From a virus (taxonomy: Duplodnaviria; Caudoviricetes), in the IMG/VR virus record IMGVR_UViG_3300046656_000217, positions 1-53,552 of that record: DNA of 53,552 nucleotides. One strand, written 5' to 3'. The notes beneath the pieces are model-generated. The model had not been told where the DNA came from. It searched no databases and saw only the letters and a list, made by a program, of their open reading frames with translations. The position numbers and the translations under genes are program-made. This document shows, piece by piece, positions 8,796 through 25,100 of this stretch (position 1 is its first letter; each line of letters starts with the position of its first letter).

Positions 8796-9140
8796 TTACT
8801 GTTGGAGGGAGTAAGCCACCGCGTCGTCCATTTCCTGTTGGCTGATCGGCGTCTTCTTGTTCATGTTGAGCCACCGCTGCACCAAGTAGACCAACAGTTG
8901 TTGCATCAGCCAAATCCAGTTCGCGAGCGCGATCGGGTTCGGCAGGTTGAAGTCGATCTTGCGGATGCCGAACACCCGCTCGACCCGTTCCGGAAATTTG
9001 AAGTCCTTGAGCACCGGGTCGACTAAAGGGGGGTCGTCTTCCGCCATCTCCGGCGCCCAACTAATCAACCGCTGGATGAAGTCGTTGAACTCCTCCGTGT
9101 AGATGTCGTAGTTCACGGTAATTGAGTACGTGACTGCCAT
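8796..9140 (-). CDS. Hypothetical protein
   Basis: 114 aa ORF with GGAG SD. Confidence 0.55.
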   Translation of the reverse strand: MAVTYSITVNYDIYTEEFNDFIQRLISWAPEMAEDDPPLVDPVLKDFKFPERVERVFGIRKIDFNLPNPIALANWIWLMQQLLVYLVQRWLNMNKKTPISQQEMDDAVAYSLQQ

Positions 9141-9172
9141 TCGACGATCTCCATTAAGAAGGAAGGGATGGT

Positions 9173-10441: not shown

Positions 10442-10967
10442 GGGCTTCTCCTCGTTGATAAGGTCGGAACGGGTTTCTCATCCACCACAAGATCGCCGGG
10501 TCGTAGAACCCGGACTCTTCGAGCACGTCCGCCGCCGGACCGAGACCCGCCAGGTCACCCTCGGCAAGCCCGGCCAGGATCTCCTCGAACGCGGGCGGCG
10601 GCGAGCCCCCGCGGTTCGATACCCCCCACACGATCGCGTCCCGCAGATCGCCGAAGGCCCAGCGGTCCACCGGCTTCGGACGCGGCCTGCCCGCGTACGG
10701 AACGTCCTCGTACAAGCCCCACCCGATCGAGACCAAGCCCCGAGCCAGGGCCCGACGCTCCTCGATCGTCGCGATCCGCTTGAAGCCTTCCAGCATAGCC
10801 CGCTCCAACCGCAACCGAGATGCCGTCCACTCGGCGTACTCCCGGTAACGGGCACCCGCCAACTCACGAAACGTCTTGGAAATCAAGGCGTTCAACGAGT
10901 CGGACGATTCCGGCTCGACGGGCAAAATCGGGCTTTCGGGCTCAGATGTGTTCGCTTTCGACAACAC
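10413..10967 (-). CDS. Hypothetical protein with Gemmata-type 'ADxLEExG...IL' C-terminal motif (start uncertain)
   Basis: 'GDLAGLGPAADVLEESGFYDPAILWWMR' resembles the 'PILADALxxAG' family expanded in Gemmataceae. Confidence 0.5.
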   Translation of the reverse strand: MLSKANTSEPESPILPVEPESSDSLNALISKTFRELAGARYREYAEWTASRLRLERAMLEGFKRIATIEERRALARGLVSIGWGLYEDVPYAGRPRPKPVDRWAFGDLRDAIVWGVSNRGGSPPPAFEEILAGLAEGDLAGLGPAADVLEESGFYDPAILWWMRNPFRPYQRGEAHDGDAETAG

Positions 10968-11304
10968 TGCACCGTTGGCGCGGTTTCGACAGGTTAACAC
11001 CTTCAGGTCCGGCAGCAAGCGGAAAAGCCGACCCCCTGCAAAACCGATGTTTTTCCCTGAATTACGACGATCGGGGCACCGGCGACCACCCTGGGACCGG
11101 CCCGACAAGACGCTCGACGCACGGGCTTCCAGGCTCTCATCCGATGGGACGCGGGCCTTCAAAAAGGGGGAAGAAGGCAGGTGAATCAAATGCGGGCGCG
11201 CCGGGGGGCCGGGCCGGGCCGGGTCTGGTCCCTGCCCATTTCCCCCTTGGTTTCCTAGTGCTTTCCCCCCTGTCTGACTGCGAGCGTAGGACGCAAGGCG
11301 CAAC

Positions 11305-11640
11305 TTGCCCCGAGCCCCATCGGGTGCAGGTGCCGCGGGGCTTGTCCCTCATGGGAGGGGGAGTTCATCGGCTCGGGCGGGCTCGGGCTCGGGTGGCGAC
11401 GGGTGAAGGTGCTCGGCTCGGGTGCTGTTGTCCTGTCTACTCTGGGTATCGGGTGTCATCTTGTCCGGTTTCCCTGTCGTTCCGGGCTCGGGAGGGTGTT
11501 AAGCCTGGTTAACAAAGCGCGACTGACATTGTGTTAAGCCTGGTTAGCGCGGATTGTGAGAACGGGAAAGATTGTCCGGGGAATTGCGGGAGGGTGCTCG
11601 GGTGGGAATTACCGGGGAATGCGGTTCGCTGTCTGGTCAA
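11305..11640. promoter_or_regulatory. Divergent control region / possible genome-end or origin region with GCTCGG repeats and a 16-bp direct repeat
   Basis: Strand switch point; GTGTTAAGCCTGGTTA at 11496-11511 and 11531-11546; clustered GCTCGG. Confidence 0.55.
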
Positions 11641-11671
11641 TTCCCACAATCCCATTTTCCAAGGTGCTGAG

Positions 11672-12028
11672 ATGACAACGCAAGAGAACGAACAACGGAT
11701 TAATGAGGCAGTTTCCGAGCATGCGCGATTGAAAGCGGACCGGGCTCGGGAAGTGAACTTGGCTCGGGAGTTTTCCAAGGTGCTCCGGGAATGGCTGACA
11801 CCCTCTCAGATGGCGGAAGTGATTCGGCGAAACGCTACTCCCGAGTATGCCGACGGGTTGTGCTGCGCGTCCCACGATTTTTGTGATGCGAATATGGCGA
11901 TGGACGCGGCGCTACGGGTTAACTATGCCGACCGGATGACTGGCGATTGGGTGACTGAAGACGACGAACTACGGGGATTGTGGAATTCCGCTTGGGATAT
12001 TGCCAAGTCTAACGGGTTCACGGTCTGA
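11672..12028 (+). CDS. Early hypothetical protein
   Basis: Start re-called at MTTQEN behind AAGGTG; 'CASHDFCDANMAM' motif. Confidence 0.6.
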   Translation: MTTQENEQRINEAVSEHARLKADRAREVNLAREFSKVLREWLTPSQMAEVIRRNATPEYADGLCCASHDFCDANMAMDAALRVNYADRMTGDWVTEDDELRGLWNSAWDIAKSNGFTV

Positions 12029-12120
12029 CCCGGCCCGTCCTAGTTTCCCCGGTGCTATCGGCCGGGGAATTGTTGGGACGTGCCGATTTCCGGCCCGTTA
12101 ACTCTTGTGAGGGTCTGACG

Positions 12121-13506
12121 ATGAACTTTGCCGATTTAGTTGCAAGCGCTCCGCGGATTACCTTGGATGGGCGCCCCGTTGTGGTTTCCGAGAATCACGA
12201 CATGTCGTCGATTAACTGGGTCGCGGGATTATCCGACCCCGGGGAAATGATCGCTTGCGGCGCCTACCAAGAATTGCGCCGTTTGACGGGTGAGAACGAC
12301 GGGGATTATGCCAAGCGCCTTGTTCCCCTGATTGCTTCCCTCCCACCCGAGCACCGGGAACGGATAACCCGGGCCGGAATCGAGAGCGCGACAAAACGGG
12401 CGGGTCTCAGCATGACGAACGGGCGGGTCGCGGTTATGACTAGCGGGAATATCTCCCCCTGGCATGCGCTCGGAACGCACTTCTCGGGTCCGGTTTCCGG
12501 GGATATGGTCCTAGTTCCTTCCGGTACCAATTTCGACGTTGCCAAGCGGGAATTGGCCTACGAATTCCAAGGGAAGACAATCGCTTCCAAGTGTGCGTGG
12601 TCAATCGTCCGGACCGATACCGGGTTAGAACTCGGTTCGGTCGGGTCGAAATACAAGGTAGTCCAGAATCGGGAAGTGGTCGCGCTTGCCGATTCAATCG
12701 TCGGGGAATTCGGGGCTCGGTTTGAGACCGCGGGCGCCTTAGATGACGGGGCTCGGGTTTGGTATCAAATTGCCTTACCTAAACAGTCGTTCGCGCTGTT
12801 TGGTGGGAAGGTGCGAAATGAGGCAAGCGCCTTGTTTTCGTCATCTCATGACGGATCGGGAGCGCTGCTAGTCGTGCCGACAAGCGAAAACGTGGTTTGC
12901 AAAAATACCCATCGAATCGCGCTGAATAAGGCGCGCGGGAAAGGGATTGCAATCCGCCATACGGGAGACCCCCGAGCGAAAATCGAGGAATGCCGAAAGG
13001 CGCTCGGTTTGGTTGTGAAAGGTGCTGAAGTCTACGCGCAAACCGCCGACGCGCTTTCCCGGGCTCGGCTCGGAAATGAGCGCGTCTACTTCGGGTCGAT
13101 TTTGGATGAGGTTTTAACCGCGACGGAAGCGCAATTGGCCACGGGCCGGGAAGTGTGGGCTCGGTCCGATTCCGACGCGCTTGCGGGTATCATCGGCTCG
13201 GAACAGTCGAAGTATTTGGAGAAGCGCCGGGAAGAATTCGACGGTTTGGTAGAACTCAGGACGACGCTATTGGATGACATGTTGAACCGGTTTAACAGTG
13301 AAAACTGTGGCGCCGGTGGGATGCGGGGAAGCGCGTTTTCTGGGTATATGGCTGTCACGGAAAGCGCCGACCACGGTTTGCTCGGCGGACGACGACAGGG
13401 AAGCGAACGCAAGCGCGAGGAAACGCGGTTTGATTCTGTCACGGTCGGGAAGGCAGACGACATAAAGCAAATTGCTTTCCGGAACGCTAAGACCCTTTCG
13501 GCGTAG
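12121..13506 (+). CDS. DUF932 (TIGR03299-like) phage/plasmid protein
   Basis: 'PWHALG', 'VRTDT..LGSVGSKYKVVQN', 'FETAG.L..G..VW', 'SHDGS', 'VVCKNT', 'IRHTG' motifs; ATG follows conserved leader. Confidence 0.8.
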   Translation: MNFADLVASAPRITLDGRPVVVSENHDMSSINWVAGLSDPGEMIACGAYQELRRLTGENDGDYAKRLVPLIASLPPEHRERITRAGIESATKRAGLSMTNGRVAVMTSGNISPWHALGTHFSGPVSGDMVLVPSGTNFDVAKRELAYEFQGKTIASKCAWSIVRTDTGLELGSVGSKYKVVQNREVVALADSIVGEFGARFETAGALDDGARVWYQIALPKQSFALFGGKVRNEASALFSSSHDGSGALLVVPTSENVVCKNTHRIALNKARGKGIAIRHTGDPRAKIEECRKALGLVVKGAEVYAQTADALSRARLGNERVYFGSILDEVLTATEAQLATGREVWARSDSDALAGIIGSEQSKYLEKRREEFDGLVELRTTLLDDMLNRFNSENCGAGGMRGSAFSGYMAVTESADHGLLGGRRQGSERKREETRFDSVTVGKADDIKQIAFRNAKTLSA

Positions 13507-13770
13507 TTCACCCGAGCCCGAGTTAACCCGAGCACCCGCGGATTTCCCGCGGGTGCTTTCTTTTGCGCTCGAGTGCTCGGGCATTCCCCGGGCTCGGTAA
13601 GGTGCTCGGCAATCGCCCGGGAACCGAGCCGAGCCCGAGCCCGGCGGGTGCTCGGCATTCCGTCGGCTCGGAATGCGAGCCCGAGCCCGAGCCCGGGAAA
13701 TGCGGTTTAATGCGCTCGGGTGCTCTCCGGGAATTCCCGCGGGTGCTCGGGTGCTCGGGTCGATTCCCCT
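13507..13770. repeat. Dense cluster of CCGAGC/GCTCGG hexamers in both orientations
   Basis: More than a dozen copies visible in ~260 bp of non-coding DNA. Confidence 0.75.
13531..13564 (+). terminator. Intrinsic terminator after DUF932 gene
   Basis: AGCACCCGCGG/CCGCGGGTGCT stem followed by TTCTTTT. Confidence 0.7.
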
Positions 13771-13804
13771 GGTCAACCGCCGGTGTGTGTCGGCCGGAGA
13801 TGAA

Positions 13805-13820
13805 CGGCGCGGCGGTTGCT
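13805..13820 (+). promoter_or_regulatory. Sigma54-type -24/-12 promoter
   Basis: CGGCGCG-GCGG-TTGCT matches GG-N10-GC spacing and TTGC element. Confidence 0.55.
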
Positions 13821-13858
13821 TTACGTCGGCCGGGTCTATTTCCTCATGAGGGTCTGAC

Positions 13859-14074
13859 ATGACGACGGAAGCAAGCAAGCCGCGCGGTGAATTCGACCGG
13901 TCAGTCTGGAAGGATTCAGACTTCGCGCTGATCTTCAGCTATTTCCGGGAAACTCGGGAGATATTCAAGAACTGTCCCGAGAGGGCCGGGGAATTCGCGT
14001 CGGTCATGTTGGACGATTGCGAGAGGGCCGGGTCTGCTCTGCTCTGTATCATGCGGGGTTGCGGCGCAGTCTAA
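13859..14074 (+). CDS. Early hypothetical protein
   Basis: ATG directly after TGAGGGTCTGAC leader. Confidence 0.65.
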   Translation: MTTEASKPRGEFDRSVWKDSDFALIFSYFRETREIFKNCPERAGEFASVMLDDCERAGSALLCIMRGCGAV

Positions 14075-14090
14075 CGGCACGTCGGTTGCA
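14075..14090 (+). promoter_or_regulatory. Sigma54-type -24/-12 promoter
   Basis: CGGCACG-TCGG-TTGCA, near consensus TGGCACG-N4-TTGCW. Confidence 0.65.
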
Positions 14091-14148
14091 TCGATGCGAG
14101 CCCGGGGCAATTCCGCCCCGGGCTTTCTTCTTTACTGAGGGTCTGACG

Positions 14149-14421
14149 ATGACGAATCCCATCAATGCTATTGGTGCGATTGACCAATTGACCGGAGAAG
14201 TGGCGCGGCTGTCGTCATTTCTGCGGAATGAGGCGGACGGGATTAAGGACCAGTGGGAAGGACTGAAGCGGTGCGGCGGTGCTCGGGAAGATCATGCGGC
14301 CGAGATTCTGGCCAGACTGCGCATGATCCTGGACGACCTGGCCAAGTTCTGTACTCGCACGTCGGCCGAGATAACGGCCATGAAAGCCGATCCTTTCGAG
14401 CGCAAGCAGGAAGCGGCGTAG
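14149..14421 (+). CDS. Early hypothetical protein
   Basis: Start re-called at MTNPIN after conserved leader. Confidence 0.65.
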   Translation: MTNPINAIGAIDQLTGEVARLSSFLRNEADGIKDQWEGLKRCGGAREDHAAEILARLRMILDDLAKFCTRTSAEITAMKADPFERKQEAA

Positions 14422-14481
14422 GGGATTACTCGGGGCGCCTACTTCGGGCGCCCCGTTCCTTTCTCTCTGAGGGTCTGAACA

Positions 14482-14883
14482 ATGCGGCGAATCTGTACAA
14501 GTTTTGAGACGGTAACGCCGGAGAGTGCGGCCGAAGGTGATTTCTCGGATAGTGGCTGGACCGACAAGGACGGCGAAGAGCTAGACCCGTCGGCCGACGA
14601 TGTGGCCGAGCACGGGACCGAAGAAGCGGCGGCGGTTGTGCTGGCCGTTCGCTTCCTTGAGGACCGGGGATCGGTCGAGCCGTCTAGTTCTCCAACCTGG
14701 CACCCGCGAGTCTGGTACTCGACAACCGATCCGAACATGGACTACGCGACCGGGGCGGAAACTCGCCACTCGTTTCATCTCAAGGGTTATTCAGAGAAAG
14801 AGGAACGGGAGATATACCGGGTGCTGACCCGCCCGCTGGCTGACAAACTACGGGACGCGGGCCGGGCGATCCGCGGAGAGTAA
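14482..14883 (+). CDS. Early hypothetical acidic protein
   Basis: After conserved leader; 'FETVTPESAAEGDFSDSGW'. Confidence 0.65.
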   Translation: MRRICTSFETVTPESAAEGDFSDSGWTDKDGEELDPSADDVAEHGTEEAAAVVLAVRFLEDRGSVEPSSSPTWHPRVWYSTTDPNMDYATGAETRHSFHLKGYSEKEEREIYRVLTRPLADKLRDAGRAIRGE

Positions 14884-14884
14884 G

Positions 14885-14900
14885 CGGCACGTCTCTTGCT
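14885..14900 (+). promoter_or_regulatory. Sigma54-type -24/-12 promoter
   Basis: CGGCACG-TCTC-TTGCT. Confidence 0.65.
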
Positions 14901-14947
14901 TCACACAAGCGCCCCAATCCGGGGCGCTTTCCTTTTGAGGGTCTGAC

Positions 14948-15655
14948 ATGATGGAACGACTGATCGACAGGCTACGGCCGAAATCCTGGGAGGAAGTAAT
15001 TGGTCAACCGAAAGCGGTGGCCGCTTGCCGGGGATTCGCACGGGCCGGCGTCGGTGGCCGCGCGTTCTGGATTACGGGCAAGACGGGGACCGGTAAGACG
15101 TCCCTGGCTATGTTGCTGGCCGGGGAGTTGGCCGACCCCCTCTGCATCGAGAGCATGACCGGCCGGAGTTTGACGGGGCCGGGGGTCAAGGCGCTGGCTG
15201 CTCATTCGAGGTATATGGGTGTCGGCGTGAAGACGGGCCGCGTATTCGTGGTGAATGAGGCGCAAGGGTTGAAGCGGGAAGCCATTGAAGAGCTACTAGA
15301 AACCCTGGACACGGGGGAGATTCCCCGACATGTGTGCTGGATATTCACGACGACGATTGACGGGCAGGAAAGGCTATTTGACGAATCGATAGACGCTCAC
15401 CCGCTCTTGTCCCGGTGCTCGGTTATCCCTCTCACGTCTCAGGGGTTAGCTAAGCCGTTCGCGTCCTACTTGGAAACGGTCGATCCCCTCGGCCCTCGGC
15501 CGGCGAAGTTCTACGCTCGGTTGATTGAGGACTGCCGCAACAATCTGCGGGAAGCAATTTCGTGGTTAGAGAACGACGCATTGACCGCGGCGGGTGCCGA
15601 GCCGGCGATACCCGAAGTTAACAAAGCGCAAGCTGACACTGTTACTGCTTCTTAA
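14948..15655 (+). CDS. AAA+ ATPase of the clamp-loader/RarA clade
   Basis: 'LRPKSWEEVIGQ', Walker A GKTGTGKT, Walker B variant VVNEAQ, 'LLSRC' motif. Confidence 0.8.
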   Translation: MMERLIDRLRPKSWEEVIGQPKAVAACRGFARAGVGGRAFWITGKTGTGKTSLAMLLAGELADPLCIESMTGRSLTGPGVKALAAHSRYMGVGVKTGRVFVVNEAQGLKREAIEELLETLDTGEIPRHVCWIFTTTIDGQERLFDESIDAHPLLSRCSVIPLTSQGLAKPFASYLETVDPLGPRPAKFYARLIEDCRNNLREAISWLENDALTAAGAEPAIPEVNKAQADTVTAS

Positions 15656-15685
15656 CACTAACCATTAAATCCGTGAGGGTCTGCA

Positions 15686-15898
15686 ATGCTTCAGTTCAAG
15701 GACATTCACCTAGACCGGCGAATTAAGAAGCGGGCGGTCATGTCCGCCTCTCCGGTGCTGAAGGACGGGACGGCTTACGTTAAGTTACCTGACCAGCCGG
15801 GGGTTGTATTTGAGTTTGAGATGAAGGGTTCCAAGTGGCGGTGTGTCGGCATGGGCCGTGCGGACCACTCGGCTTACCGTGGGCTATTTCCTGGATAG
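15686..15898 (+). CDS. Early hypothetical protein
   Basis: After leader variant TGAGGGTCTGCA. Confidence 0.6.
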   Translation: MLQFKDIHLDRRIKKRAVMSASPVLKDGTAYVKLPDQPGVVFEFEMKGSKWRCVGMGRADHSAYRGLFPG

Positions 15899-15983
15899 GT
15901 GCGACGCGCGGAAACCGGCCCGGGTTTGGCCCTGGCCGGATTCCCTGCGCCGGCCGGTGCGGGATTCCTCAAGAGGGTCTGAC

Positions 15984-16838
15984 ATGAGCGCGGTTAAGAC
16001 GTTGCCGGTGCGACTGCACCACTACCGTACCTTTGTGGACGAGCCGGCGTACGCTGCCGTCCTGGCCGAGATTAAGGCGAACGAAGTACCTGGCCGCGGG
16101 CATCCGATGCACGCGATTGCTGACCCGAAGAATAACGCCGACCGGGTTCACAACCACGGCGACGTCGAGGAGATCGAGATCGAGTTAGATCACCTGTTCG
16201 GGAACCAGTTAAACACGACCGACGGGCGGCGAGTGTTCGATTGGTGGGAAGGAATCGTCTACGTCAACGGTCATCGTGGCCGAAGCCGGTGCGGTCATTG
16301 GGTCGAGGTCACGCCGGAACTCGCAGAAGCCCGGATGGATTGCTGGAAGTGCGGGTATTGCGGGGAACGCTACGGGCCGAACCACAAGCCGCTACCCGGT
16401 GGGGGATTCTGCCTTGCTTGCATCGGTTCGCCGTACCTGAAGACGGAAGACATGTACCTGTTGCGATTGCTGCCCGTCATCGAGCCCGAGCCGAAGCGGG
16501 AACCGTTGACCGATGACGAGAAGGCCGCATTGATGCCGGTCTATCTGGACAAGCAGACGAAGCGGACCGAGCAAGAGGCGGTCAAGCTGCGGGTGAAGAT
16601 TCTTGACGAGTATTCGACGGCGATTCAGAAGGCAACGACCGAGCGGGATGGGATGATCTGGCTGTTGGATCACGGGTACAACGCGGATAACGTCATCTAC
16701 TACAACCATACCGGCCGGTTCGGGTTCGGCTGGCGGTCGAAACTCTCGGCCGAAGTGAAGGATAAATTGCTGGATTTGCTCTGTGAATTCCAGTTCCCGT
16801 ACACGATCGAATGGACGGGAGGGAAGATCGAAAGCTAA
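15984..16838 (+). CDS. Early hypothetical protein with CxxC motifs
   Basis: Start re-called at MSAVKT after AGAGGGTCTGAC. Confidence 0.65.
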   Translation: MSAVKTLPVRLHHYRTFVDEPAYAAVLAEIKANEVPGRGHPMHAIADPKNNADRVHNHGDVEEIEIELDHLFGNQLNTTDGRRVFDWWEGIVYVNGHRGRSRCGHWVEVTPELAEARMDCWKCGYCGERYGPNHKPLPGGGFCLACIGSPYLKTEDMYLLRLLPVIEPEPKREPLTDDEKAALMPVYLDKQTKRTEQEAVKLRVKILDEYSTAIQKATTERDGMIWLLDHGYNADNVIYYNHTGRFGFGWRSKLSAEVKDKLLDLLCEFQFPYTIEWTGGKIES

Positions 16839-16927
16839 GGGGTGCGACCATCCCGCCCGGCCCGGCTTGTTCCGGGCCGGGTAGGACGGCCGGCTTTTCG
16901 GTTGTCTATCCTCTTGAGGGTCTGACG

Positions 16928-17668
16928 ATGCCGGAACCAACTGCGCACCTGCACAAGTACAAGTGTGACGAGTGCGGCGACGAGTGGGAAACGACCAGTG
17001 AGTACGACGACGATGCCGAGTGTGGCGAGTGCGGCCATGCTCAGGAGTGTACGGAAGAGTCGATTCCGTTGTACGCCGAAGAGCCGGCGGCAATCGCGGC
17101 GCTGCGGGCGTTATTCGAGCATTGCGCGATGACGCACAAGCATTGGGGCGACGGCTGCAACCGGAAAGAGGCTAACGCCGCGGAGAAAGCCGGCCGGGAT
17201 GCGCTGGCCGCATGGGATGCGGGAAAGGCGGTGGCCGAGCCCAAGCCGGTCGGTGTTCGATGCGCCGGGTGCGACGAAGTTCGGCCGGTGTTTACCTGGG
17301 TGCCGGGTAGCGACGGGTACGAACACTTCCCGGCGTGCTCGGCCGAGTGCGAAGCGGCGCTGAAGGCTGCCGGCGATCCGGACGACGAAGATGACAAGCC
17401 CTACGCGGATTCTCTCTCTGGCCCTGTTACGGCATTTCACCGGTCGTTAGGCCGCGCCATGGTCTGCGAGCCGATCCCCGACGATTACCCCGTCCGACCG
17501 CTGGACGTGGACGAGCCGGCGAAGGATCGCAAGACCTGCGGATATTGCGGCTGGTCGTGGGATGACGCGATTGTCACCGGCATGACACCGGCGCCGGGTG
17601 CCCGGTGTCCGTTCGAGTCGTTCCACCGGCCCGAGATGGTTGAGGCGGGGAAGGCGGTGCGGTCGTGA
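16928..17668 (+). CDS. Multi-zinc-finger hypothetical protein
   Basis: Start re-called at MPEPTA after leader; several CxxC pairs. Confidence 0.65.
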   Translation: MPEPTAHLHKYKCDECGDEWETTSEYDDDAECGECGHAQECTEESIPLYAEEPAAIAALRALFEHCAMTHKHWGDGCNRKEANAAEKAGRDALAAWDAGKAVAEPKPVGVRCAGCDEVRPVFTWVPGSDGYEHFPACSAECEAALKAAGDPDDEDDKPYADSLSGPVTAFHRSLGRAMVCEPIPDDYPVRPLDVDEPAKDRKTCGYCGWSWDDAIVTGMTPAPGARCPFESFHRPEMVEAGKAVRS

Positions 17669-17865
17669 AACGCGCCATCACAATCCCGACCGTCCTTTAC
17701 CGTCGGCTGATCTGGGTATCCCAGCAAGCCCGCGATACGCTCGACAACCTACAAGATGTTGGGTTGGACAGGAACGAAACGACTGGCAAGGAATTTGAGG
17801 ACTGCCGTAAATTGAGGAAGGCACTCGAAGCCTTGGACAAAGTCCGTAACGCGAAAGCGGTCTGA
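17665..17865 (+). CDS. Hypothetical protein
   Basis: GTGA coupling to upstream gene. Confidence 0.5.
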   Translation: MKRAITIPTVLYRRLIWVSQQARDTLDNLQDVGLDRNETTGKEFEDCRKLRKALEALDKVRNAKAV

Positions 17866-17875
17866 TACTCGTAAA

Positions 17876-17963
17876 GCTCGGGCCGATCCTTGGAGGGGTG
17901 ACGTCAGACCCCATCCCCCGGGGCGCCGCTTGTTGCGGCGGGAATCGGACCATCGGCCCGAGC
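17876..17963 (+). ncRNA. Candidate small structured RNA with a segment antisense to the early-gene leader
   Basis: Perfect 12-bp closing stem (17876-17887/17952-17963), two inner hairpins, CGTCAGACCC at 17902-17911. Confidence 0.5.
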
Positions 17964-17993
17964 CTCTTTAACCTCCACCCTCTTAGGTGATGA

Positions 17994-18224
17994 ATGAACG
18001 CGAATTACACTGGTGAACACGGCAACAGGACTAAGCCGCGGATCACTAATGATCTGTTCGATTACCTCCAAAAGTGGAAGGGTTGGGTCGGCGCGGATGC
18101 CGTCAGCCGGGCGAAGTTCGACCGGGACGTATCGGACCAATTCGGGCTATCCCTGTCCGATGCGTCCGCTGCCGTGGCTGAAGTGTTCGGGGCGAACTAC
18201 GCGAGCCCGACGGTGGAAGGATGA
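17994..18224 (+). CDS. Hypothetical protein
   Basis: ORF with AGGTG SD, coupled to next gene. Confidence 0.5.
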   Translation: MNANYTGEHGNRTKPRITNDLFDYLQKWKGWVGADAVSRAKFDRDVSDQFGLSLSDASAAVAEVFGANYASPTVEG

Positions 18225-18457
18225 CCAAAGCGGAATTCGTGCGGGCTGCGATCCCGCAGCCTATCGCCCTGGGTGGTATGCCGCTGTCCGCCGACCCCCG
18301 GCTCTTCCCGGCCGGGTCGTGCGGCTGGCGGTGGAACGGCTCTCTGTACGTCAAGGTCGGCGGCGACTGGCTGTCCGTCCTGGCTGCCGTCCAGATGACC
18401 GTCATCGGGTCGAGAAAGTGGGAAGCTGACATTGCCGCGATCAGGACGACCGCGTAG
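18221..18457 (+). CDS. Hypothetical protein
   Basis: ATGA coupling. Confidence 0.55.
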   Translation: MTKAEFVRAAIPQPIALGGMPLSADPRLFPAGSCGWRWNGSLYVKVGGDWLSVLAAVQMTVIGSRKWEADIAAIRTTA

Positions 18458-18486
18458 ATTCGATTCCGACGCATGGAGGTTAGCGT

Positions 18487-18684
18487 ATGCTAGTTCTCAG
18501 CATGTCTGAACATTCCGGCGGCGACGACGACATCATCCTAAGAGATGCGGCGACCGGCCGGATTATCTGTGAAATTACACTCGTCGAGGTGCGCGGGAGC
18601 AAAGCCCGGTTGGGCTATGCCGCGCCCGACGACGTCGAACTCAACCGGCGGGCAATCGATCAAAAGAAGCACCCCGCCGGGTGA
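18487..18684 (+). CDS. csrA: CsrA/RsmA-like RNA-binding translational regulator
   Basis: 'MLVLS...ITLVEVRGSKARLGYAAPDDVELNRR' aligns by eye with CsrA (MLVLSR...ITVVEIRGDKVRLGIDAP..V.VHR); GGAGG SD. Confidence 0.75.
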   Translation: MLVLSMSEHSGGDDDIILRDAATGRIICEITLVEVRGSKARLGYAAPDDVELNRRAIDQKKHPAG

Positions 18685-18714
18685 CCTGTCCTTTCTTTCT
18701 CTCTGAGGATTCCC

Positions 18715-19851
18715 ATGACGACCGACGCGCCCGATGGGGTGGAAGCCCCGTCAATCCACATGCCGGTGGTGAAGTACAGCCCGGACGACGCGGCGATTGC
18801 CGTGCTCCGGAAAGAGTGTGCCGAGTTGTTGGCCGATCCCGCTGCGGCGGTGGCCACGGACGAAGGGTACGAGCGGGTAAGGTCGGCCCTACAGATCACC
18901 CGGAAGTGGCGGGGTGAGATCGAGCGGAACCGGGTGAGCCTGAAGGCCGACGCCTTGGAGTTCGGCCGGCTGGTTGACCTGCGGGCGAAAGAGGCGCTGG
19001 CCAAGGTGACCTCGATTGAAGACCCGCTGAAGGCGGCGAAGGATGCCAAGGACGACGAGAAGAAGAAGGCCAAGGAAGCCGCGGAGAAAGCCGAGCGGGA
19101 AGCCCTGGAAGCCGCGGAGCGGGCCAAGGTCGAGGCCGAAGTTGCACGGCTGAAGGCGATTCGGGACGCGGAGCAAGCCAAGCTGGACGCGGACCGGGCG
19201 GCGCTGGCCGCGGAACGGGCGGCGATGTTGGCCGAACAGAAGGCCGCGGACGACCGGCGGCGGGCCGAACAGGATGCCGCGGACGCCAGGCGGAAGGCCG
19301 AACAGGACGAGCGCGATCGCGCTGCCGCGATTGAGGCGGCGAGAGTTGCGGCAGTTAACGCGGAAGCCGCCCGCATCCTGAAGGAATCCTCGGACAAGCT
19401 GGAAGCGGAGCGGGCCGCGCTGAAGGCCGAAGCCGATCGCCAGGCGAAGGCCGAAGCCGATCGACTGGAAGCGATCCGGGCGGCGAAGGAGAAGGAAGAC
19501 CGGGCCGAGTTCGAGCGACAGACGAAGGAACGGCTGGCCAAGGAAGCGGAGATGACGGCCGCGCGGCTGGCCAAGGAAGCGGCCGACAAGGCTGAGGCCG
19601 AGCGTCTGAGGGCCGAAGCCGCTGCTAAAGCCAAGGCGGAAGCCGATATGAGGGAACAAGCCCGGTTGCTGGCCGCTGCACCGGACGTCGAGAAGCTGAA
19701 CAAGTTCGGCGAGATGTTGTTGGAGTTCCTGGACGACAACAAGCCGAAGCTGAAGACGGCCGACGCGAAGGGGATCTTCGAAGTTCAGTTCAAGATCATC
19801 ACCGATTCCGCTATCGCCTTCCAGAATTACCGGGTCGAGAAGAAGAAGTAA
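18715..19851 (+). CDS. Long coiled-coil protein (Ala/Glu/Lys/Arg-rich)
   Basis: Charged helical repeats; position before ERF typical of recombination modules. Confidence 0.7.
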   Translation: MTTDAPDGVEAPSIHMPVVKYSPDDAAIAVLRKECAELLADPAAAVATDEGYERVRSALQITRKWRGEIERNRVSLKADALEFGRLVDLRAKEALAKVTSIEDPLKAAKDAKDDEKKKAKEAAEKAEREALEAAERAKVEAEVARLKAIRDAEQAKLDADRAALAAERAAMLAEQKAADDRRRAEQDAADARRKAEQDERDRAAAIEAARVAAVNAEAARILKESSDKLEAERAALKAEADRQAKAEADRLEAIRAAKEKEDRAEFERQTKERLAKEAEMTAARLAKEAADKAEAERLRAEAAAKAKAEADMREQARLLAAAPDVEKLNKFGEMLLEFLDDNKPKLKTADAKGIFEVQFKIITDSAIAFQNYRVEKKK

Positions 19852-19880
19852 CCTTCCATCTCCAACTCAAGAGGACTGCG

Positions 19881-20099
19881 ATGAGCAAGCACAACAGGGA
19901 ACGCCGGAAGGCCGGGGTCGAGCGGGCCAAGCTGATCGCGGCCGGCAAGATCAAGCCGACGCCTCGGGTGCGGGACACCCGGAAGGTGATCTACAAGGAC
20001 ACCGAAGCCGGTCCGTCCCGCCACCGGGAAACGAAGCACAACCCGCCGTGGTGGATCACGCCGAAGGAACCGTTGACCGCTACTGTTTCATCTCTCTAA
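19881..20099 (+). CDS. Small basic hypothetical protein
   Basis: GAGG SD; fills gap in operon. Confidence 0.5.
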   Translation: MSKHNRERRKAGVERAKLIAAGKIKPTPRVRDTRKVIYKDTEAGPSRHRETKHNPPWWITPKEPLTATVSSL

Positions 20100-20111
20100 C
20101 AGGGGCTCACC

Positions 20112-20837
20112 GTGGTAGAAGAAAGCGCACTGGCCACCTTCAACCCGCAGCCTTTGTTGGCTGCGGCGATCGAGGGGAAGGCGACGCCCGAGACGTTGGC
20201 CAAGCTGACCGACTTGATGGAACGCTGGATGAAGATGCTGGCCGAGAAGCAGTTCAACGAAGCGATGAACCGGGCACAGATCAACGCCCCGACCGTCGTC
20301 CGGGATCTGAAGAACAGCGAGACGGGTAAGGGGTACGCTCCGGTCGAGACGGTCCAGACCTACATGAAGCCGGTGTATACCGTCGAGGGGTTCGCCCTGT
20401 CGTTCGGCACCGACGTCGGCTCGGGTGAAGGACTGACGCACGTCTGGATGGACACCCGGCACGTCGGGGGTCACACCGCCCGTACCTGGCTGCACAACGT
20501 CCCTCTCGACGTGGCCGGTCCCAAGGGCGGCAAGACGAAGAGCGACATTCAGGGGCTCATGTCCAGTATCAGCTACGCCCAAGGCCGGCTGATCCGCATG
20601 GCGTTCAACGTCACGGTGGCCGACGAAGATCGCGACGGGCAGATGGACGTCATCTCCGATGAACAGGTCGAGGAGATCGAAGGCTGGTTCACCAAATGCG
20701 AAGAGGCCGGCAAACCGGTCAGTCAAGCTAGGATGCTGCACTGGCTGCGGGTCGATTCGTGGGACCGGCTGCCGCTCAAGAAGTACCCGCTCTGCATTGA
20801 CGAACTCACCCGCAAGTTCAACGAGAAGAAACAATGA
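20112..20837 (+). CDS. ERF-family single-strand annealing protein
   Basis: 'YAPVETV...GFALSF...HVGGH...IQGLMSSISYAQGR' resembles ERF signature; adjacent to YqaJ. Confidence 0.75.
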   Translation: MVEESALATFNPQPLLAAAIEGKATPETLAKLTDLMERWMKMLAEKQFNEAMNRAQINAPTVVRDLKNSETGKGYAPVETVQTYMKPVYTVEGFALSFGTDVGSGEGLTHVWMDTRHVGGHTARTWLHNVPLDVAGPKGGKTKSDIQGLMSSISYAQGRLIRMAFNVTVADEDRDGQMDVISDEQVEEIEGWFTKCEEAGKPVSQARMLHWLRVDSWDRLPLKKYPLCIDELTRKFNEKKQ

Positions 20838-21457
20838 GACACATCCCCTGTGAACAAGGGTCTCAGGAATGGTACCTGGCCCGCCGGGGGATCCCCACGG
20901 CGAGCCGGTTCGGGGAGATCCTGACCCAGAAGACGTTGCGGCTCTCCGAGTCGTGCGAGGGTTACATCGACGAGTTGATCGGCGAGCGACTGGCGACGAT
21001 GCTGCCGGAAGGGGTCGAGAACTACACGTCCCGGGCGATGCAATGGGGACAGGCCACGGAAGAGGACGCCCGCCGCTACTTCAGCCTTCAGACCAACTAC
21101 GACGTGAAGAAGTGCGGATTCCTCATCACCGACGACAACAAGTTCGGGGCGAGCCCGGACGGATTGGTGTACGACGGCGAGACCCTGATCGGTGGGCTCG
21201 AACTGAAGTGTCCCCAGCCGAAGGCCCACATGGGGTACGTGCGGAAGAAGGTTCTGCCGGACGATCACCGGGCCCAGGTTCACGGCGGGATGTTCGTGTC
21301 GATGCTGCCTCGGTGGTGGTTCCTGTCCTACTGTCCGGGCTGCCCGCCCCTGTTGAGATCCGTGGTCCCCGACTCGTATACCCGGATGCTCGGGGAAGCG
21401 TTGTTCGAGTTCGACAAGCGGCTTCAAGACGCAATCGCCGCACTCCGCGACGGTTGA
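20834..21457 (+). CDS. YqaJ/lambda-exonuclease-family protein
   Basis: 'QGSQEWYLARRGIPTAS', 'MQWG...E', 'GASPDGL', 'ELKCP' motifs. Confidence 0.9.
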   Translation: MRHIPCEQGSQEWYLARRGIPTASRFGEILTQKTLRLSESCEGYIDELIGERLATMLPEGVENYTSRAMQWGQATEEDARRYFSLQTNYDVKKCGFLITDDNKFGASPDGLVYDGETLIGGLELKCPQPKAHMGYVRKKVLPDDHRAQVHGGMFVSMLPRWWFLSYCPGCPPLLRSVVPDSYTRMLGEALFEFDKRLQDAIAALRDG

Positions 21458-21480
21458 TTTAACCCTTTCAGGATGCGCCA

Positions 21481-21789
21481 ATGGCTAAGGCCAAACCGAA
21501 GAAGAAGAACGGTCTCACCGCGAAGGAGAAGGAGCAACCGCCCATCCCAGGGGCGGAACAAGACGACAAGATTCAGGCGATCCACACCGCGGCGGTCGCG
21601 TACAAGCAGACCCAGCAAGAATTCAGCGAAGCCGGCGGGGAGTTGAGTGAGGCTAAGATCCGGCTGATCGAGATCATGAAGCAGCACGACAAGACCCACT
21701 ACCAGCACGGCAACGTCGAGGTCGATCTGAGGGCCGGCAAGGACCGGATCAAGGTGAAGATCCAGAACGCCGAGAAGGACGAGAAGTAA
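21481..21789 (+). CDS. Hypothetical protein
   Basis: 102 aa ORF in operon. Confidence 0.6.
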   Translation: MAKAKPKKKNGLTAKEKEQPPIPGAEQDDKIQAIHTAAVAYKQTQQEFSEAGGELSEAKIRLIEIMKQHDKTHYQHGNVEVDLRAGKDRIKVKIQNAEKDEK

Positions 21790-21790
21790 T

Positions 21791-21828
21791 CCCCTCCCCC
21801 TATCCCCTCTCCCCCTCGGGGAGAGGGG
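21791..21828. repeat. REP/BoxC-like palindromic element
   Basis: Pyrimidine tail plus CCCCTCTCCCC-CTC-GGGGAGAGGGG 11-bp stem. Confidence 0.5.
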
Positions 21829-21844
21829 CCAATCGAGGACCATC

Positions 21845-22141
21845 ATGAACGCCGATGGGATTGGGGATACGTTCGCCGGCCAGCGAATCGACAAGGCCCG
21901 TCTGTCCGCGAAGCGTCGGGCAATCGCCGTTGCGATCTTGGAGCGGGAAAAGATCTGTTTCGAGTCTTGTGCCAATGGCAAAAGACTGTTCGTTCTCTAC
22001 TCGATAGACTTTTGGCCCGGGTCCGAATTGTGGGTCGACAGACACACAAAGCAACGCGGTCGTGGCGTCGCGTCTTTGATTCGCCACATTGACACAACCT
22101 GTCCGTCGGCACGACGGGCGTTGGAGGAATGTTGTGGCTAA
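21845..22141 (+). CDS. Hypothetical protein
   Basis: GAGG SD; overlaps ParB-like start. Confidence 0.45.
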   Translation: MNADGIGDTFAGQRIDKARLSAKRRAIAVAILEREKICFESCANGKRLFVLYSIDFWPGSELWVDRHTKQRGRGVASLIRHIDTTCPSARRALEECCG

Positions 22142-22919
22142 GCTCAAACAACTCAGGCCGAAGATCGATCCGGAGATCTGCGGGTTGCTCCCTCAACCCC
22201 ACGCGGAAGAGCGGGCGCAACTGAAGGCCGACATTGAGATGAACGGCTTGCTCGACGAAGGGATCGTCTGGAAGGAGAACGGCATCCTGTTGGACGGTCA
22301 CACCCGGTTCAAGATCTGCGAAGAGTTGGGCATTCCTTTCCGGTACCAGACTCTCTCGTTCCCGGACCGGCAAGAGGCGATCGATTGGGTCTACAACAAC
22401 CAACTCGCGCGGCGGAACGTGGCGAAAGACGAACGGGCAGTCTTGATAGCGAAGCGGGTGAAGATCCTCAAGGCTCAAGCCGAAGCGGAAAAAGCACTGG
22501 AAAAGCAGGGCGAAAGTTGCTCTCAAAGTGATAGCAAACCGGCCACCGTGCGGGAAATCGCGGAACGTGTAGCGGCCGAGAAGAAGGTGTCGACGGCCAC
22601 GGTTTACCGAGCCGTCGCCAAGGTCGATTCCAACTTCTGCGACCGGTGCGTGCGGACCGGGATGCCGGCGAAGAACTGTCCGAAGTGTGCCGAGAAGCGG
22701 GCCGCGAAGCCCAAGCCGAAGAAGAAGGCGCCCGACAAGGGAAGGGTGCTCATCGACTGGCCGAAGTTCAAGAAGGCATTCCCCGCGGTCGTCCAACTCT
22801 CCGACCACATGCACCGCCACTATCCGAAGGTGATGGAATCCGGTGAGCGGAAGGAGTACGAACGCCACATCGCCGCCATCACCGCCCTGTGGCAATCCTG
22901 GGAGAAGAAGATCAAATGA
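22134..22919 (+). CDS. ParB-like protein (ParB N-terminal domain plus HTH)
   Basis: GTG behind GGAGG; 'LLDGHTRFKIC', 'NQLARRN', HTH 'VREIAERVAAEKKVSTATVYR'. Confidence 0.8.
   Translation: MAKLKQLRPKIDPEICGLLPQPHAEERAQLKADIEMNGLLDEGIVWKENGILLDGHTRFKICEELGIPFRYQTLSFPDRQEAIDWVYNNQLARRNVAKDERAVLIAKRVKILKAQAEAEKALEKQGESCSQSDSKPATVREIAERVAAEKKVSTATVYRAVAKVDSNFCDRCVRTGMPAKNCPKCAEKRAAKPKPKKKAPDKGRVLIDWPKFKKAFPAVVQLSDHMHRHYPKVMESGERKEYERHIAAITALWQSWEKKIK
22517..22537. promoter_or_regulatory. Palindromic site 3, inside ParB-like gene just before the HTH codons
   Basis: TTGCTCTCA-AAG-TGATAGCAA, identical to site 1. Confidence 0.75.
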
Positions 22920-24466
22920 ACGACTGGCCCCACCAAACGAAAGCCGTCGCCGACGTCCTGGCCGCGATCGAGGCCAAGCATCGGCGGATCTGTGTGACGA
23001 GTCCGACGGGCGGCGGCAAGTCCCGGATCATGGGCTTGCTGGCCGAACACTTCCAAGATCAGGGTGTCGTTCTCTACACGAACCGCAAGCTACTGGTCAA
23101 CCAAACCTCGGGGGTGTTCTCCGGGTTTGACTTCGAACACGGGGTAAGGGCTGCTGGCCATGAAGAAAACAAGCACCACAAAGTCCAAGTCTCTTCGGTC
23201 CAGACCGAAGACGCCCGGGTCAACAAAGGGAAGACGTGGCAACTCCACGAAGCCAAGATCGTCCTTGTCGACGAAGCCCATCTCATCAAGGCCGATGTCG
23301 CCAAGGGGATCTTTGACAGTCACATTGAACGGGGTGCTACTATTGTCGGCTTCACCGCTACCCCGCTCGATCTCGAAGAACTCTACGATCACCTTATTGC
23401 CGCCGGGCGACCCTCCGAACTACGAGACTGTGGGGCCCTGGTCTCGGCGTCTCATTTCGGCCCCGACGAACCCGATCTCGCCGCCCTCAAGAAGCTCAAA
23501 AAGAAAATCCCCGCCGAAGGGGAAGAGTGGTCCGAGAACCAAGTCAAAGCCGCGATGATGAACCCCTCCCTGTTCGGTCGGGTGTGGGACTGGTTCGGCA
23601 AGCTGAATCCCGAGCGGAAGCCGTCCATCCTGTTCGCCCCCGGCACTCAGGAATCCCTCTGGTTCGCCGAGAAGTTCTTCCAGAACGGAGTCTCGGCCGC
23701 TCACCTGGCCGCGGGGCAAGTCTGGTTCAACGGCGAGTGGCTGCACGACCGCGGCAAGGGCGACGAGCAAGAGGCGAGACAGAAGGTGCTCGCCGTATCC
23801 AAGGCCGGGAAGTGTACCGTCCTCTGCAACCGGTTCCTCTTGCGGGAGGGGATCGACGCGCCTTGGCTCGAACACGGGATCTTCGCCACCATCTTCGGCA
23901 GCCTGCAACCCTACCTTCAGTCCGGTGGCCGTTTGCTGCGGTCGTCGTCTTCGACCGGAAAGACCGGGGCAACCATTCAGGACCACGGCGGGAACTGGTG
24001 GCGGCACGGCAGCCTCAACGCCGACCGTGAATGGGATCTGCACTACTCCGCGTCGATGGTCGCACAAATGCGGGCGGAACGGTTCCGGGAGAAGAAGGAG
24101 AAGGAACCCTGGCGGTGCCCGGGGTGCGGCCAGATCCGCACCGGGAAGACGTGCGAGTGCGGGTACGTCCTCGGCCCCAAGGCGAGCCGGCCGGTGGTGA
24201 CGATGGACGGCGACATGAAGGAGATGGTTGGGGACATTCATAGACCGCGCCGGGTGGATACGAGACTGGCCGGAGTGCAACTGTGGGAGAAGATGTACTT
24301 CCGGTCGCTCCGCGGGAAGGGGATCAAGTCGTTCGCTCAGGCTCGGGCTCTCTACGCCTACGAGAACAACTGGCTGTGGCCCGACAAACGGTGGCCGCTC
24401 ATGCCGATGTACGAAGAAGACTTCTACCGGCTGGTCCCCGACGTCCCTCGGGAGCGGTTGCGATGA
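22916..24466 (+). CDS. SF2 (DEAH) helicase with C-terminal zinc finger
   Basis: SPTGGGKS, DEAH, TATP, EGID, QSGGRLLR; CPGC...CEC. Confidence 0.9.
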   Translation: MNDWPHQTKAVADVLAAIEAKHRRICVTSPTGGGKSRIMGLLAEHFQDQGVVLYTNRKLLVNQTSGVFSGFDFEHGVRAAGHEENKHHKVQVSSVQTEDARVNKGKTWQLHEAKIVLVDEAHLIKADVAKGIFDSHIERGATIVGFTATPLDLEELYDHLIAAGRPSELRDCGALVSASHFGPDEPDLAALKKLKKKIPAEGEEWSENQVKAAMMNPSLFGRVWDWFGKLNPERKPSILFAPGTQESLWFAEKFFQNGVSAAHLAAGQVWFNGEWLHDRGKGDEQEARQKVLAVSKAGKCTVLCNRFLLREGIDAPWLEHGIFATIFGSLQPYLQSGGRLLRSSSSTGKTGATIQDHGGNWWRHGSLNADREWDLHYSASMVAQMRAERFREKKEKEPWRCPGCGQIRTGKTCECGYVLGPKASRPVVTMDGDMKEMVGDIHRPRRVDTRLAGVQLWEKMYFRSLRGKGIKSFAQARALYAYENNWLWPDKRWPLMPMYEEDFYRLVPDVPRERLR

Positions 24467-24768
24467 CCACCAAGCAGAAGGCCGAGTTCCTGAAGAACGA
24501 AGACGGCTGGTTGACCGGCACGTTCTGCCCGCATTGCGACGGGGACATGTTCGAGTTCGAACCCTACCGGAATCGCGCCCTGAAGAACCCGCTCATCTGC
24601 ATCGACTGCGGGAAGCGGATGGGACACGACGCACCGGTCGCCTGGCCCGGGACCACAATTACGGCGGTCGATTACGAGCGGGCGATCTGGCAGCACCAAC
24701 AGGACAACCGGGTCGTGCTCCTCGGCGACGTGGTGGATCAGGTACTCGATCGGCTGGGTGTCACATGA
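24463..24768 (+). CDS. Zinc-finger hypothetical protein
   Basis: CPHC...CIDC; ATGA coupling. Confidence 0.55.
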   Translation: MTTKQKAEFLKNEDGWLTGTFCPHCDGDMFEFEPYRNRALKNPLICIDCGKRMGHDAPVAWPGTTITAVDYERAIWQHQQDNRVVLLGDVVDQVLDRLGVT

Positions 24769-25100
24769 TGGGAAAGACCGTCTACCGTTTGCCACTAACC
24801 GCCGTCGTGCGGGAGTGCTGGGTCAACCCGGACAACAAGCGGATTTCTCAAATAGAGCCGAAGGTCGGTTGGATCCATGCGATCGCAATCGAGTCTATCT
24901 TTGTTGCGAGAGAACGCCGACAGGGACACGCCAAACGATTCATCGACGAACTGTGCCGGGATCTCCGGTTCGACATGGTAATCGTCGAGATGGTCCGAAA
25001 CCCGTACCTCATGGACGCACTTCACCGGTGGGGGTGGGAATGCGATCCGGGGGTGAGTGATTTCTTCAAGAGGACTGAACGTGGACAGACCGTCGTGTGA
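24765..25100 (+). CDS. GNAT-like acetyltransferase
   Basis: 'IESIFVARERRQGHAKRFIDEL' resembles GNAT motif A. Confidence 0.5.
   Translation: MMGKTVYRLPLTAVVRECWVNPDNKRISQIEPKVGWIHAIAIESIFVARERRQGHAKRFIDELCRDLRFDMVIVEMVRNPYLMDALHRWGWECDPGVSDFFKRTERGQTVV

Follow-up and report, generated by a model that had tools for sequence, protein, structure and literature searches.

The c4 RNA of phages P1 and P7 is described, in the passages of PMC12197685 that deal with it, as binding around the ribosome-binding site by means of sequences placed in loops, and the same passages present DicF of the Qin prophage as an operon-embedded small RNA (sRNA) that pairs at the ribosome-binding sites of its targets. 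A different kind of signal, the 13-nucleotide (nt) start-associated sequence (SAS) of Cluster K mycobacteriophages, was introduced by Pope et al. in 2011 with its function unknown; the sections of that description that treat SAS (PMC3203893) report one copy in opposite orientation, away from gene starts, in each of four K1 phages and leave room for a partner that is possibly 'RNA or protein'. In the corresponding passages of work from 2024-2025 the function is still given as unknown (PMC11373665, PMC12699233), and a link between a reverse SAS copy and an RNA hairpin was not found in these passages of the Cluster K papers. Here we analyze an 88-nt branched hairpin at positions 17876-17963 of the virus record IMGVR_UViG_3300046656_000217, whose 53,552 bases, referred to as the window, make up the whole IMG/VR record. 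Tentatively, we regard this element as a c4-like, self-masked antisense RNA at the 3' end of the last gene cassette that bears a shared leader. This reading is ranked first, ahead of a plain terminator, a DNA-level protein site and a cis-acting element, in that order.

The shared leader, TGAGGGTCTGAC, is present in eight copies between 12108 and 16926, all on the plus strand and each 0-2 nt ahead of an ATG, with GAGGGTCTG as the invariant core (Table 1). Most genes of the block are preceded by the same cassette plan, consisting of a G+C-rich hairpin, a pyrimidine run, the 12-nt leader and the ATG. Throughout the phage, starts are often built from a Shine-Dalgarno sequence, a stop codon, a few bases and the start codon, and the shared leader stands out as a particularly uniform case; it carries two TGA triplets in different frames right before the start. 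The leader core GGGTCTGACG occurs on the plus strand at 12111, 14139 and 16918 and on the minus strand at 17902-17911, which amounts to four matches on both strands of the window where 0.30 are expected. Its exact complement on the plus strand, the anti-leader CGTCAGACCC, thus lies within the element, as pointed out in an initial annotation of the sequence and confirmed here by a motif search. The match extends over 10 nt for three leaders, 9 nt for another three (13847, 14936 and 15972), 8 nt for the one at 14468 and 7 nt for the one at 15674, and pairing would span the region from the ribosome-binding-site GGG up to the base preceding the AUG. The element starts 10 nt past the stop codon of the block's last gene and, sharing the strand of the leader-bearing genes, would be included in any transcript that reads through the last cassette.

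The structure proposed in the initial annotation, a perfect 12-base-pair (bp) stem enclosing two hairpins, reads as described. As evidenced by RNA folding, the stretch 17866-17990 reaches -59.7 kcal/mol with a z-score (z) of -3.25, and none of 200 shuffled sequences was equally stable. Six bases of the anti-leader lie in the open 8-nt loop of hairpin 1, and the loop bases 17901-17907 have predicted unpaired probabilities of 0.80-1.00, in agreement with the earlier placement of the seed in the loop. Judged from the sequence, the 5' arm of this hairpin, GGAGGGGU, resembles the leader itself: a real leader would exchange like for like in the stem and gain the loop pairs in addition, which would constitute a toehold-type arrangement. 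Note that the loop TTGTT is common to hairpin 2 (17928-17936) and to the hairpin that precedes leader 8 (CCCGGCCCGG-CTTGTT-CCGGGCCGGG, 16868-16883).

In a duplex-energy scan of positions 9000-25000 that allowed wobble pairs and bulges, hairpin 1 was the best site for the leader, with -21.1 kcal/mol. Net energies, calculated as the duplex energy after subtraction of the cost of opening both the hairpin and the site on the messenger RNA (mRNA), were -8.1, -5.5, -7.2, -7.2, -8.7, -1.7, -10.4 and -5.4 kcal/mol for leaders 1 to 8, respectively, such that seven of the eight are predicted to fall between -5.4 and -10.4 kcal/mol. We infer a stable RNA species, its pairing in vivo and the repression of translation by this pairing. 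The element would be transcribed on the plus strand together with the genes at 16928-17865, and termination or protection of the transcript would fall to its 12-bp outer stem and CUCUUU tail. Hairpin 1 would be the self-masked antisense module, the seed CGUCAG in its 8-nt loop pairing first with the leader spacer CUGAC(G). From there, pairing would spread into ACCC and displace the leader-like arm GGGGU, and the resulting duplex of 9-12 bp would cover the leader from the ribosome-binding-site GGG to the base before the AUG and block initiation. The RNA would work either in trans or at long range inside a single transcript, and as it would build up along with the genes it targets, the outcome would be a delayed negative feedback on the leader-bearing genes.

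Table 1. Coordinates of the branched hairpin, the leader copies and the flanking genes in the window.
Feature	Position	Strand	Remarks
Branched hairpin, three-way junction, 88 nt	17876..17963	+	minimum free energy -54.0 kcal/mol alone; z -3.25 within 125-nt context
Outer stem, 5' arm GCTCGGGCCGAT, perfect 12 bp	17876..17887	+	starts with heptamer GCTCGGG
Outer stem, 3' arm ATCGGCCCGAGC	17952..17963	+	GCTCGGG on minus strand
Hairpin 1, core GGGGT-GACGTCAG-ACCCC	17895..17912	+	8-nt loop GACGTCAG
Hairpin 1, extended	17892..17916	+	leader-like 5' arm GGAGGGGT, 3' arm ACCCC-A-TCC
Anti-leader CGTCAGACCC	17902..17911	+	6 nt in loop, 4 nt in 3' arm
Hairpin 2, CGCCGC-TTGTT-GCGGCG	17924..17940	+	
Pyrimidine-rich tail CTCTTTAA, 4 T in 8	17964..17971	+	homology to strain X6 stops at 17968
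Leader 1	12108..12119	+	before ATG 12121 (DUF932 protein)
Leader 2	13847..13858	+	before ATG 13859
Leader 3	14136..14147	+	before ATG 14149
Leader 4 (TGAGGGTCTGAA)	14468..14479	+	before ATG 14482
Leader 5	14936..14947	+	before ATG 14948 (AAA/clamp-loader-like protein)
Leader 6 (TGAGGGTCTGCA)	15674..15685	+	before ATG 15686
Leader 7 (AGAGGGTCTGAC)	15972..15983	+	before ATG 15984 (phrog_26133 protein)
Leader 8	16915..16926	+	before ATG 16928
66-codon gene	17665..17865	+	overlaps stop of 16928-17668 (GTGA); stop 17863-17865, 10 nt ahead of element
Next gene	17994..18224	+	different ribosome-binding site, AGGTGATGA-ATG; replaced in strain X6

The conservation of the element was followed in contigs from four DNA sequencing runs that were compared with the window over 11500-20000, considering the differences listed. 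Runs X2 and X3 are essentially identical to the window, and X4 and X6 hold diverged strains. Over 17856-17968 the X6 contig shows two other letters and one gap; directly thereafter, 99 unrelated letters replace the 333 bases 17969-18301, and the match picks up again over 18302-18549, where 26 of 248 letters differ. Both X4 and X6 are devoid of one C at 17909, by which the CA:UG extension of the pairing proposed in the initial annotation is gone, and CGTCAGACCC is intact among the differences listed. Strain X4 in addition misses 13834-14071 (cassette 2; 238 bases) and 18482-18735 (254 bases). Related strains therefore skip or replace entire small-gene cassettes, in X4 at 13834-14071 and 18482-18735 and in X6 at 17969-18301. 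The element is a conserved island at a mosaic cassette boundary, almost unchanged in two diverged strains. Further afield, the hairpin pattern gave no match in viral contigs, and the outer-stem pattern matched three loci in metagenome contigs, all unrelated; two of the three are the same sequence read in opposite orientations. Of 401 genomes drawn from the order to which the Hyphomicrobiales metagenome-assembled genome (MAG) with the distant relative L116 (see below) belongs, 17 gave marginal matches of 26-48 nt, and none of these lay at the element.

These strains bear on the view that the element acts in cis, either as a leader structure for gene 17994 or as a signal for processive antitermination or processing that serves the recombination and replication genes at 18-33 kilobases (kb). 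The hairpin ends 30 nt before the ATG at 17994, where a small CACC/GGUG hairpin can mask the ribosome-binding site, the genes downstream are tightly packed without hairpins, and the anti-leader of the distant relative L088 is predicted to act in cis on the next gene. Strain X6, however, retains the element and has the 333 bases downstream replaced, the anti-leader has no complementarity to AGGTGAT, the ribosome-binding site downstream, and no riboswitch or leader family of Rfam matches. We consider a cis-acting element very unlikely.

Distant relatives were collected through an alignment of 36 homologues of the protein encoded at 15984-16838, which led to 36 viral loci and six genome loci; these 42 loci were screened for 9-mer repeats, and the lineages and repeats reported here are among the matches listed. 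At least four other lineages carry repeated, start-associated leaders of their own: AGGAGCACTAGAC in L080/81/82, GGAGGGCTGA in L116, GGAGGGTT(AGA) in L088 and AGGAGACTATCA in L107. A matching anti-leader is present in two of these four. In L088 it is the 11-nt TCTAACCCTCC, complementary to GGAGGGTTAGA and located 8 nt past a stop codon in the hairpin GGAGGG-ATCTAA-CCCTCC, whose design is that of the window, with a leader-like 5' arm, the complement of the spacer in the loop and the complement of the ribosome-binding site in the 3' arm. In the predicted minimum-free-energy (MFE) fold of this intergenic region, the anti-leader pairs with the leader 72 nt downstream, which suggests that it acts in cis on a single gene downstream rather than through the global shut-off of early genes that the initial annotation had envisaged. 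In L107 the 10-nt anti-leader TTGATAGTCT, complementary to AGGAGACTATCAA, lies 30 nt past a stop codon and right before a strong terminator. When the leaders were shuffled, two of 60 reached an equally good site in L088 and none of 60 in L107; the same test was null for L080/81/82 (15/60) and for L116 (35/60). A hairpin-guided search gave nine matches against three in the control, with a repeated leader involved solely at L088; as it required an exact match of the arm, the window's own hairpin was missed. An unrestricted search, which compared every start region with every site for 10-nt complements, was not informative, with 264 matches against 223 and 171 in controls, and the 63 single matches of a leader 15-mer to viral contigs look like chance.

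Other repeats were observed in the same set of loci. L105, an IMG/VR contig of 16.8 kb, carries the palindrome GTCTCACGTGAGAC 17 times, about once per gene, and six of these copies are 15-20 nt before an ATG. Inverted repeats of the type CTTAGAACC...GGTTCTAAG, with an operator-like look, are found in L096, L101 and L111 with up to nine copies per locus, and at L103:4580-10370 a unit of about 50 nt (GAGGCTTGC...CAGTGGGCA...TCGGAATCC) with internal inverted repeats is iterated about seven times, reminiscent of the extended SAS of Cluster K.

The palindrome of L105 is relevant to a DNA-level explanation, in which a DNA-binding regulator of the phage would recognise GGGTCTGAC as a half-site, two half-sites in hairpin 1 (GGGGTGAC/GTCAGACCCC) would make up an imperfect operator and the arms of the outer stem would bear the reiterated GCTCGGG box. 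One half of this palindrome, GGTCTCAC, is a single base off the window's GGTCTGAC, and the perfect palindrome TGACGTCA appears just once in the window. For the heptamer GCTCGGG, 62 occurrences compare with an expectation of 18.9; it is concentrated in two non-coding regions, 11304-11653 and 13507-13858, and also makes up both ends of the outer stem. Folding is neutral as to the strand. The two halves of hairpin 1 are nevertheless asymmetric, GGGGTGAC versus GGGGTCTGAC, with the GACGTC centre displaced by one base, and the leaders would be lone half-sites without a partner. The motif is moreover fixed at 0-2 nt from the start codon and includes the ribosome-binding site, which argues for the RNA level, the anti-leader of L107 lies outside any palindrome, and the enrichment of GCTCGGG extends to coding DNA and may reflect a general word bias. 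A protein site on the DNA appears unlikely to us. With respect to the heptamer itself, its strand largely tracks the direction of transcription, and the two non-coding regions contain it in dense clusters alongside GGTGCTCGG and GGGAAT boxes. One of these regions, the 352-nt non-coding stretch 13507-13858 between the DUF932 gene and cassette 2, is packed with CCCGAGC/GCTCGGG repeats in direct and inverted orientation and includes a terminator-like hairpin (13530-13558). The clusters may represent an origin, an array of operators or iterons, or a Chi-like word.

The closest parallel to the leader is the SAS of Cluster K. Both are asymmetric motifs of 12-13 nt that combine a Shine-Dalgarno core with conserved extra bases, and both stand a few nt before the ATG of non-structural genes in one orientation (8/8 on the plus strand for the leader). 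The window and the K1 phages also have a single reverse copy off the gene starts, at 17902-17911 in the window and at L069:34871-34883 in phage Anaya, each in a hairpin after the last such gene. The sequences are unrelated, with a Cluster K consensus of GGGATAGGAGCCC against TGAGGGTCTGAC in the window, and host and phage family are not those of the window, so that the leader is an analogue of SAS and not a homologue. In Anaya we find 16 copies of SAS on the plus strand, and the one reverse copy falls in a 385-nt gap that follows the last two SAS genes, where it forms the 10-nt loop CCUCCUAUCC of the hairpin GCGCGG/CCGCGC. It belongs to a non-coding region of two hairpins (L069:34790-34930) near the right genome end that is present in 135 phage records, Anaya and 134 others of Cluster K; in Anaya-like phages, the loop of the second of these hairpins reads as the reverse complement of SAS. 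An alignment of ten of the 135 records shows both hairpins preserved, and the base changes in them, compensatory or to G-U, are consistent with an RNA of the plus strand; the loop is not conserved beyond Anaya-like phages and also differs in SirPhilip and Keshu.

Among described RNAs, c4 (RF01695, 87 model positions) resembles the element in its similar length, as a structured phage RNA that is co-transcribed with its targets, which is a prediction in the present case, and in loop sequences complementary to the surroundings of ribosome-binding sites in the same operon, for which CGTCAGACCC is the counterpart here. It differs in that c4 lies upstream of its target and the element downstream of its putative ones, in that eight dispersed targets with one leader stand against a single operon, and in that no antirepressor gene was recognised. 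The element is not a member of the Rfam family C4: a search of the whole record with the C4 model gave a single match of 12.5 bits, at 12669-12733. With DicF and other sRNAs from 3' untranslated regions (3'UTR) the element would share its nature as a non-coding RNA in a phage operon with a terminator-like shape, predicted here to be freed by termination or processing, and in L107 the anti-leader lies between stop codon and strong terminator as in such RNAs. DicF targets host genes, whereas this RNA would be directed at genes of the phage itself, and its U tail is weak. As for the combination of accessible seed, terminal hairpin and U tail by which 3'UTR sRNAs are recognised, the seed is half in the loop and half in the stem, followed by this weak tail. 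Further candidates were rejected. A retron was dropped for want of a reverse transcriptase, an integron attC site for want of R'/R'' ends, a riboswitch for want of a family match and an attP site because the recombinase gene is 12 kb away. Local alignment revealed no similarity past the 9-10 nt core that would indicate an inverted duplication of the leader context.

A number of observations weigh against an antisense RNA. Within the hairpin, four of the ten anti-leader bases are buried in the stem, and the loop contains the self-complementary GACGUC. The minus strand folds equally well (-61.3 kcal/mol, z -3.11) and no G-U pair marks the strand; because both strands fold equally well, folding is silent on which of them matters. 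No promoter-like site was seen upstream of the element, and none of the sequencing runs listed as carrying the phage is an RNA run. In the window nothing reaches the gathering score of any Rfam family, the C4 covariance model (gathering 45 bits) has no match in 17780-18060 at E up to 10, and beside the element three matches at chance level were all that appeared at E up to 10. The notion that one RNA serves all eight early genes would fit the seven leaders with favorable net energies and is overstated for the one at 15674, which pairs weakly (-1.7 kcal/mol), and the full 10-nt match is restricted to three of the eight. Covariation of loop and leader, which the initial annotation had tied to its proposal, is seen in part, in the pairs GGAGGGTTAGA/TCTAACCCTCC and AGGAGACTATCAA/TTGATAGTCT of L088 and L107. 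In contrast, no anti-leader accompanies the repeated leaders of L080/81/82 and L116 within the 10-17 kb of DNA covered, even when one mismatch is allowed, and in the Cluster K phage Amgine 11 exact SAS copies are kept while the homologous hairpin loop reads CUUCCCUUCC, with the complementarity lost.

The statistics from the window are likewise divided. In dinucleotide shuffles of the 88-nt element, the 10-nt anti-leader arose in 48 and the 9-nt form in 166 of 100,000 sequences (p about 0.0005-0.002), which counts in favor of the antisense reading. Against it stand two unrelated 9-nt anti-leader words elsewhere on the plus strand, at 38486 and 39186, and the energy scan of 16 kb, where 21 of 60 shuffled leaders reached an equal or better site, which is not significant. 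Taken from the window alone, the excess over chance is moderate support at best; combination of the five energy-test proportions, from the window and the four lineages, by hand with Fisher's method yields roughly p = 0.02. The initial picture of an sRNA that blocks ribosome-binding sites in trans is supported in part, in that geometry, predicted energies and strand fit it.

Several of these points would be accounted for if the element were a plain inter-cassette terminator or a hairpin protecting the 3' end, with complementarity to the leader arising by chance in a G+C-rich genome, a possible reading that we place second. Like an intrinsic terminator, the element is a G+C-rich stem right after a gene on the coding strand, followed by a pyrimidine- and T-rich run. 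Behind most genes of the block comes a G+C-rich hairpin (13530, 14098, 14431, 14907), which a pyrimidine run separates from the next start, and the element occupies the same position as these terminator-like hairpins of the other cassettes, which again speaks against a dedicated antisense RNA; its CTCTTT tail is joined by a CU-rich tract ahead of the next gene, and CTCTTTAACCTCCACCCTCTT follows the element before the start of 17994 with its non-leader ribosome-binding site. The equally strong duplexes of 21 in 60 shuffled leaders, the window-wide expectation of 0.30 for the 10-mer alongside other chance 9-mers, and the two leader-bearing relatives without an anti-leader all fit this reading as well. 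The hairpins of the other cassettes are simple, however, whereas the 12-bp stem of this 88-nt three-way junction closes a branched interior of 64 nt instead of a loop of 3-8 nt. The run CTCTTTAA holds four T in eight, against a criterion of at least five that four neighbouring cassette hairpins satisfy, and a terminator consensus scan of 11000-22000 did not call the element. It fails the consensus criteria for intrinsic terminators and may still terminate. The near-identity of the element in strains whose flanks differ by about 10% or are replaced is something that simple terminators need not display, and the independent anti-leaders in L088, L107 and Cluster K1 are hard to ascribe to chance alone. 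An anti-leader role, as read from these sequences, is plausible and has independent, partial support: the case for the c4-like RNA is strengthened because two diverged strains keep the element, L088 and L107 have matching anti-leaders, and the reverse SAS of K1 is found in a hairpin loop.

The record is linear with an estimated completeness of 82%. Its genes point leftward in the first 11.3 kb or so and once more past 33.4 kb, and those between roughly 11.5 and 33.4 kb point rightward. The rightward arm begins with small and unknown genes, beyond which it encodes an Erf-like annealing protein, an exonuclease, a ParB-like protein, a helicase and a serine recombinase. The phrog_26133 protein encoded at 15984-16838 has relatives with 33-43% identity in BcepNazgul, which is classified in the Casjensviridae, in Enc34, Sansa and others. 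Since related contigs within genome bins are mostly labelled Alphaproteobacteria, the host is probably an alphaproteobacterium of soil. Close relatives were found neither at the DNA level among the phage collection nor by protein among viral contigs when 16928-17668 and 15984-16838 served as queries; none of the 17 matches to the former protein is full-length, with only the last ~50 residues in common. The window holds no transfer RNA (tRNA) or transfer-messenger RNA (tmRNA). Past the element, the 378-residue protein of 18715-19851 is encoded by internally repetitive DNA (repeat families D1, D2 and D4), is rich in Ala, Lys and Glu and has no PHROG match. Upstream of its start, 18687-18714 contains a CU tract and the degenerate leader-like TGAGGATTCCC, and 19853-19880, upstream of the start of gene 19881, contains the similarly degenerate AGAGGACTGCG / TCAAGAGGACTGCG; neither is complementary to the loop.

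Should the complementarity be a matter of chance, the element would still be a well-conserved marker of the mosaic boundary between gene cassettes. If the hairpin is the partner of the leader, an entire set of early genes would have its translation governed by one short RNA, which would also be a natural riboregulator of the toehold type. A more far-reaching and more doubtful proposal is that phages with one uniform leader on many early genes encode, at the end of this set, a self-masked 'toehold' hairpin RNA that shuts them off jointly, and that such RNAs have arisen independently in the present Casjensviridae-like soil phage, in L088, in L107 and in Cluster K1. If this were true, the start-associated sequences of Cluster K, unexplained since 2011, would gain an RNA partner, an idea that can be tested in the cultured phages Adephagia and Anaya, for which RNA sequencing data and genetics are available.
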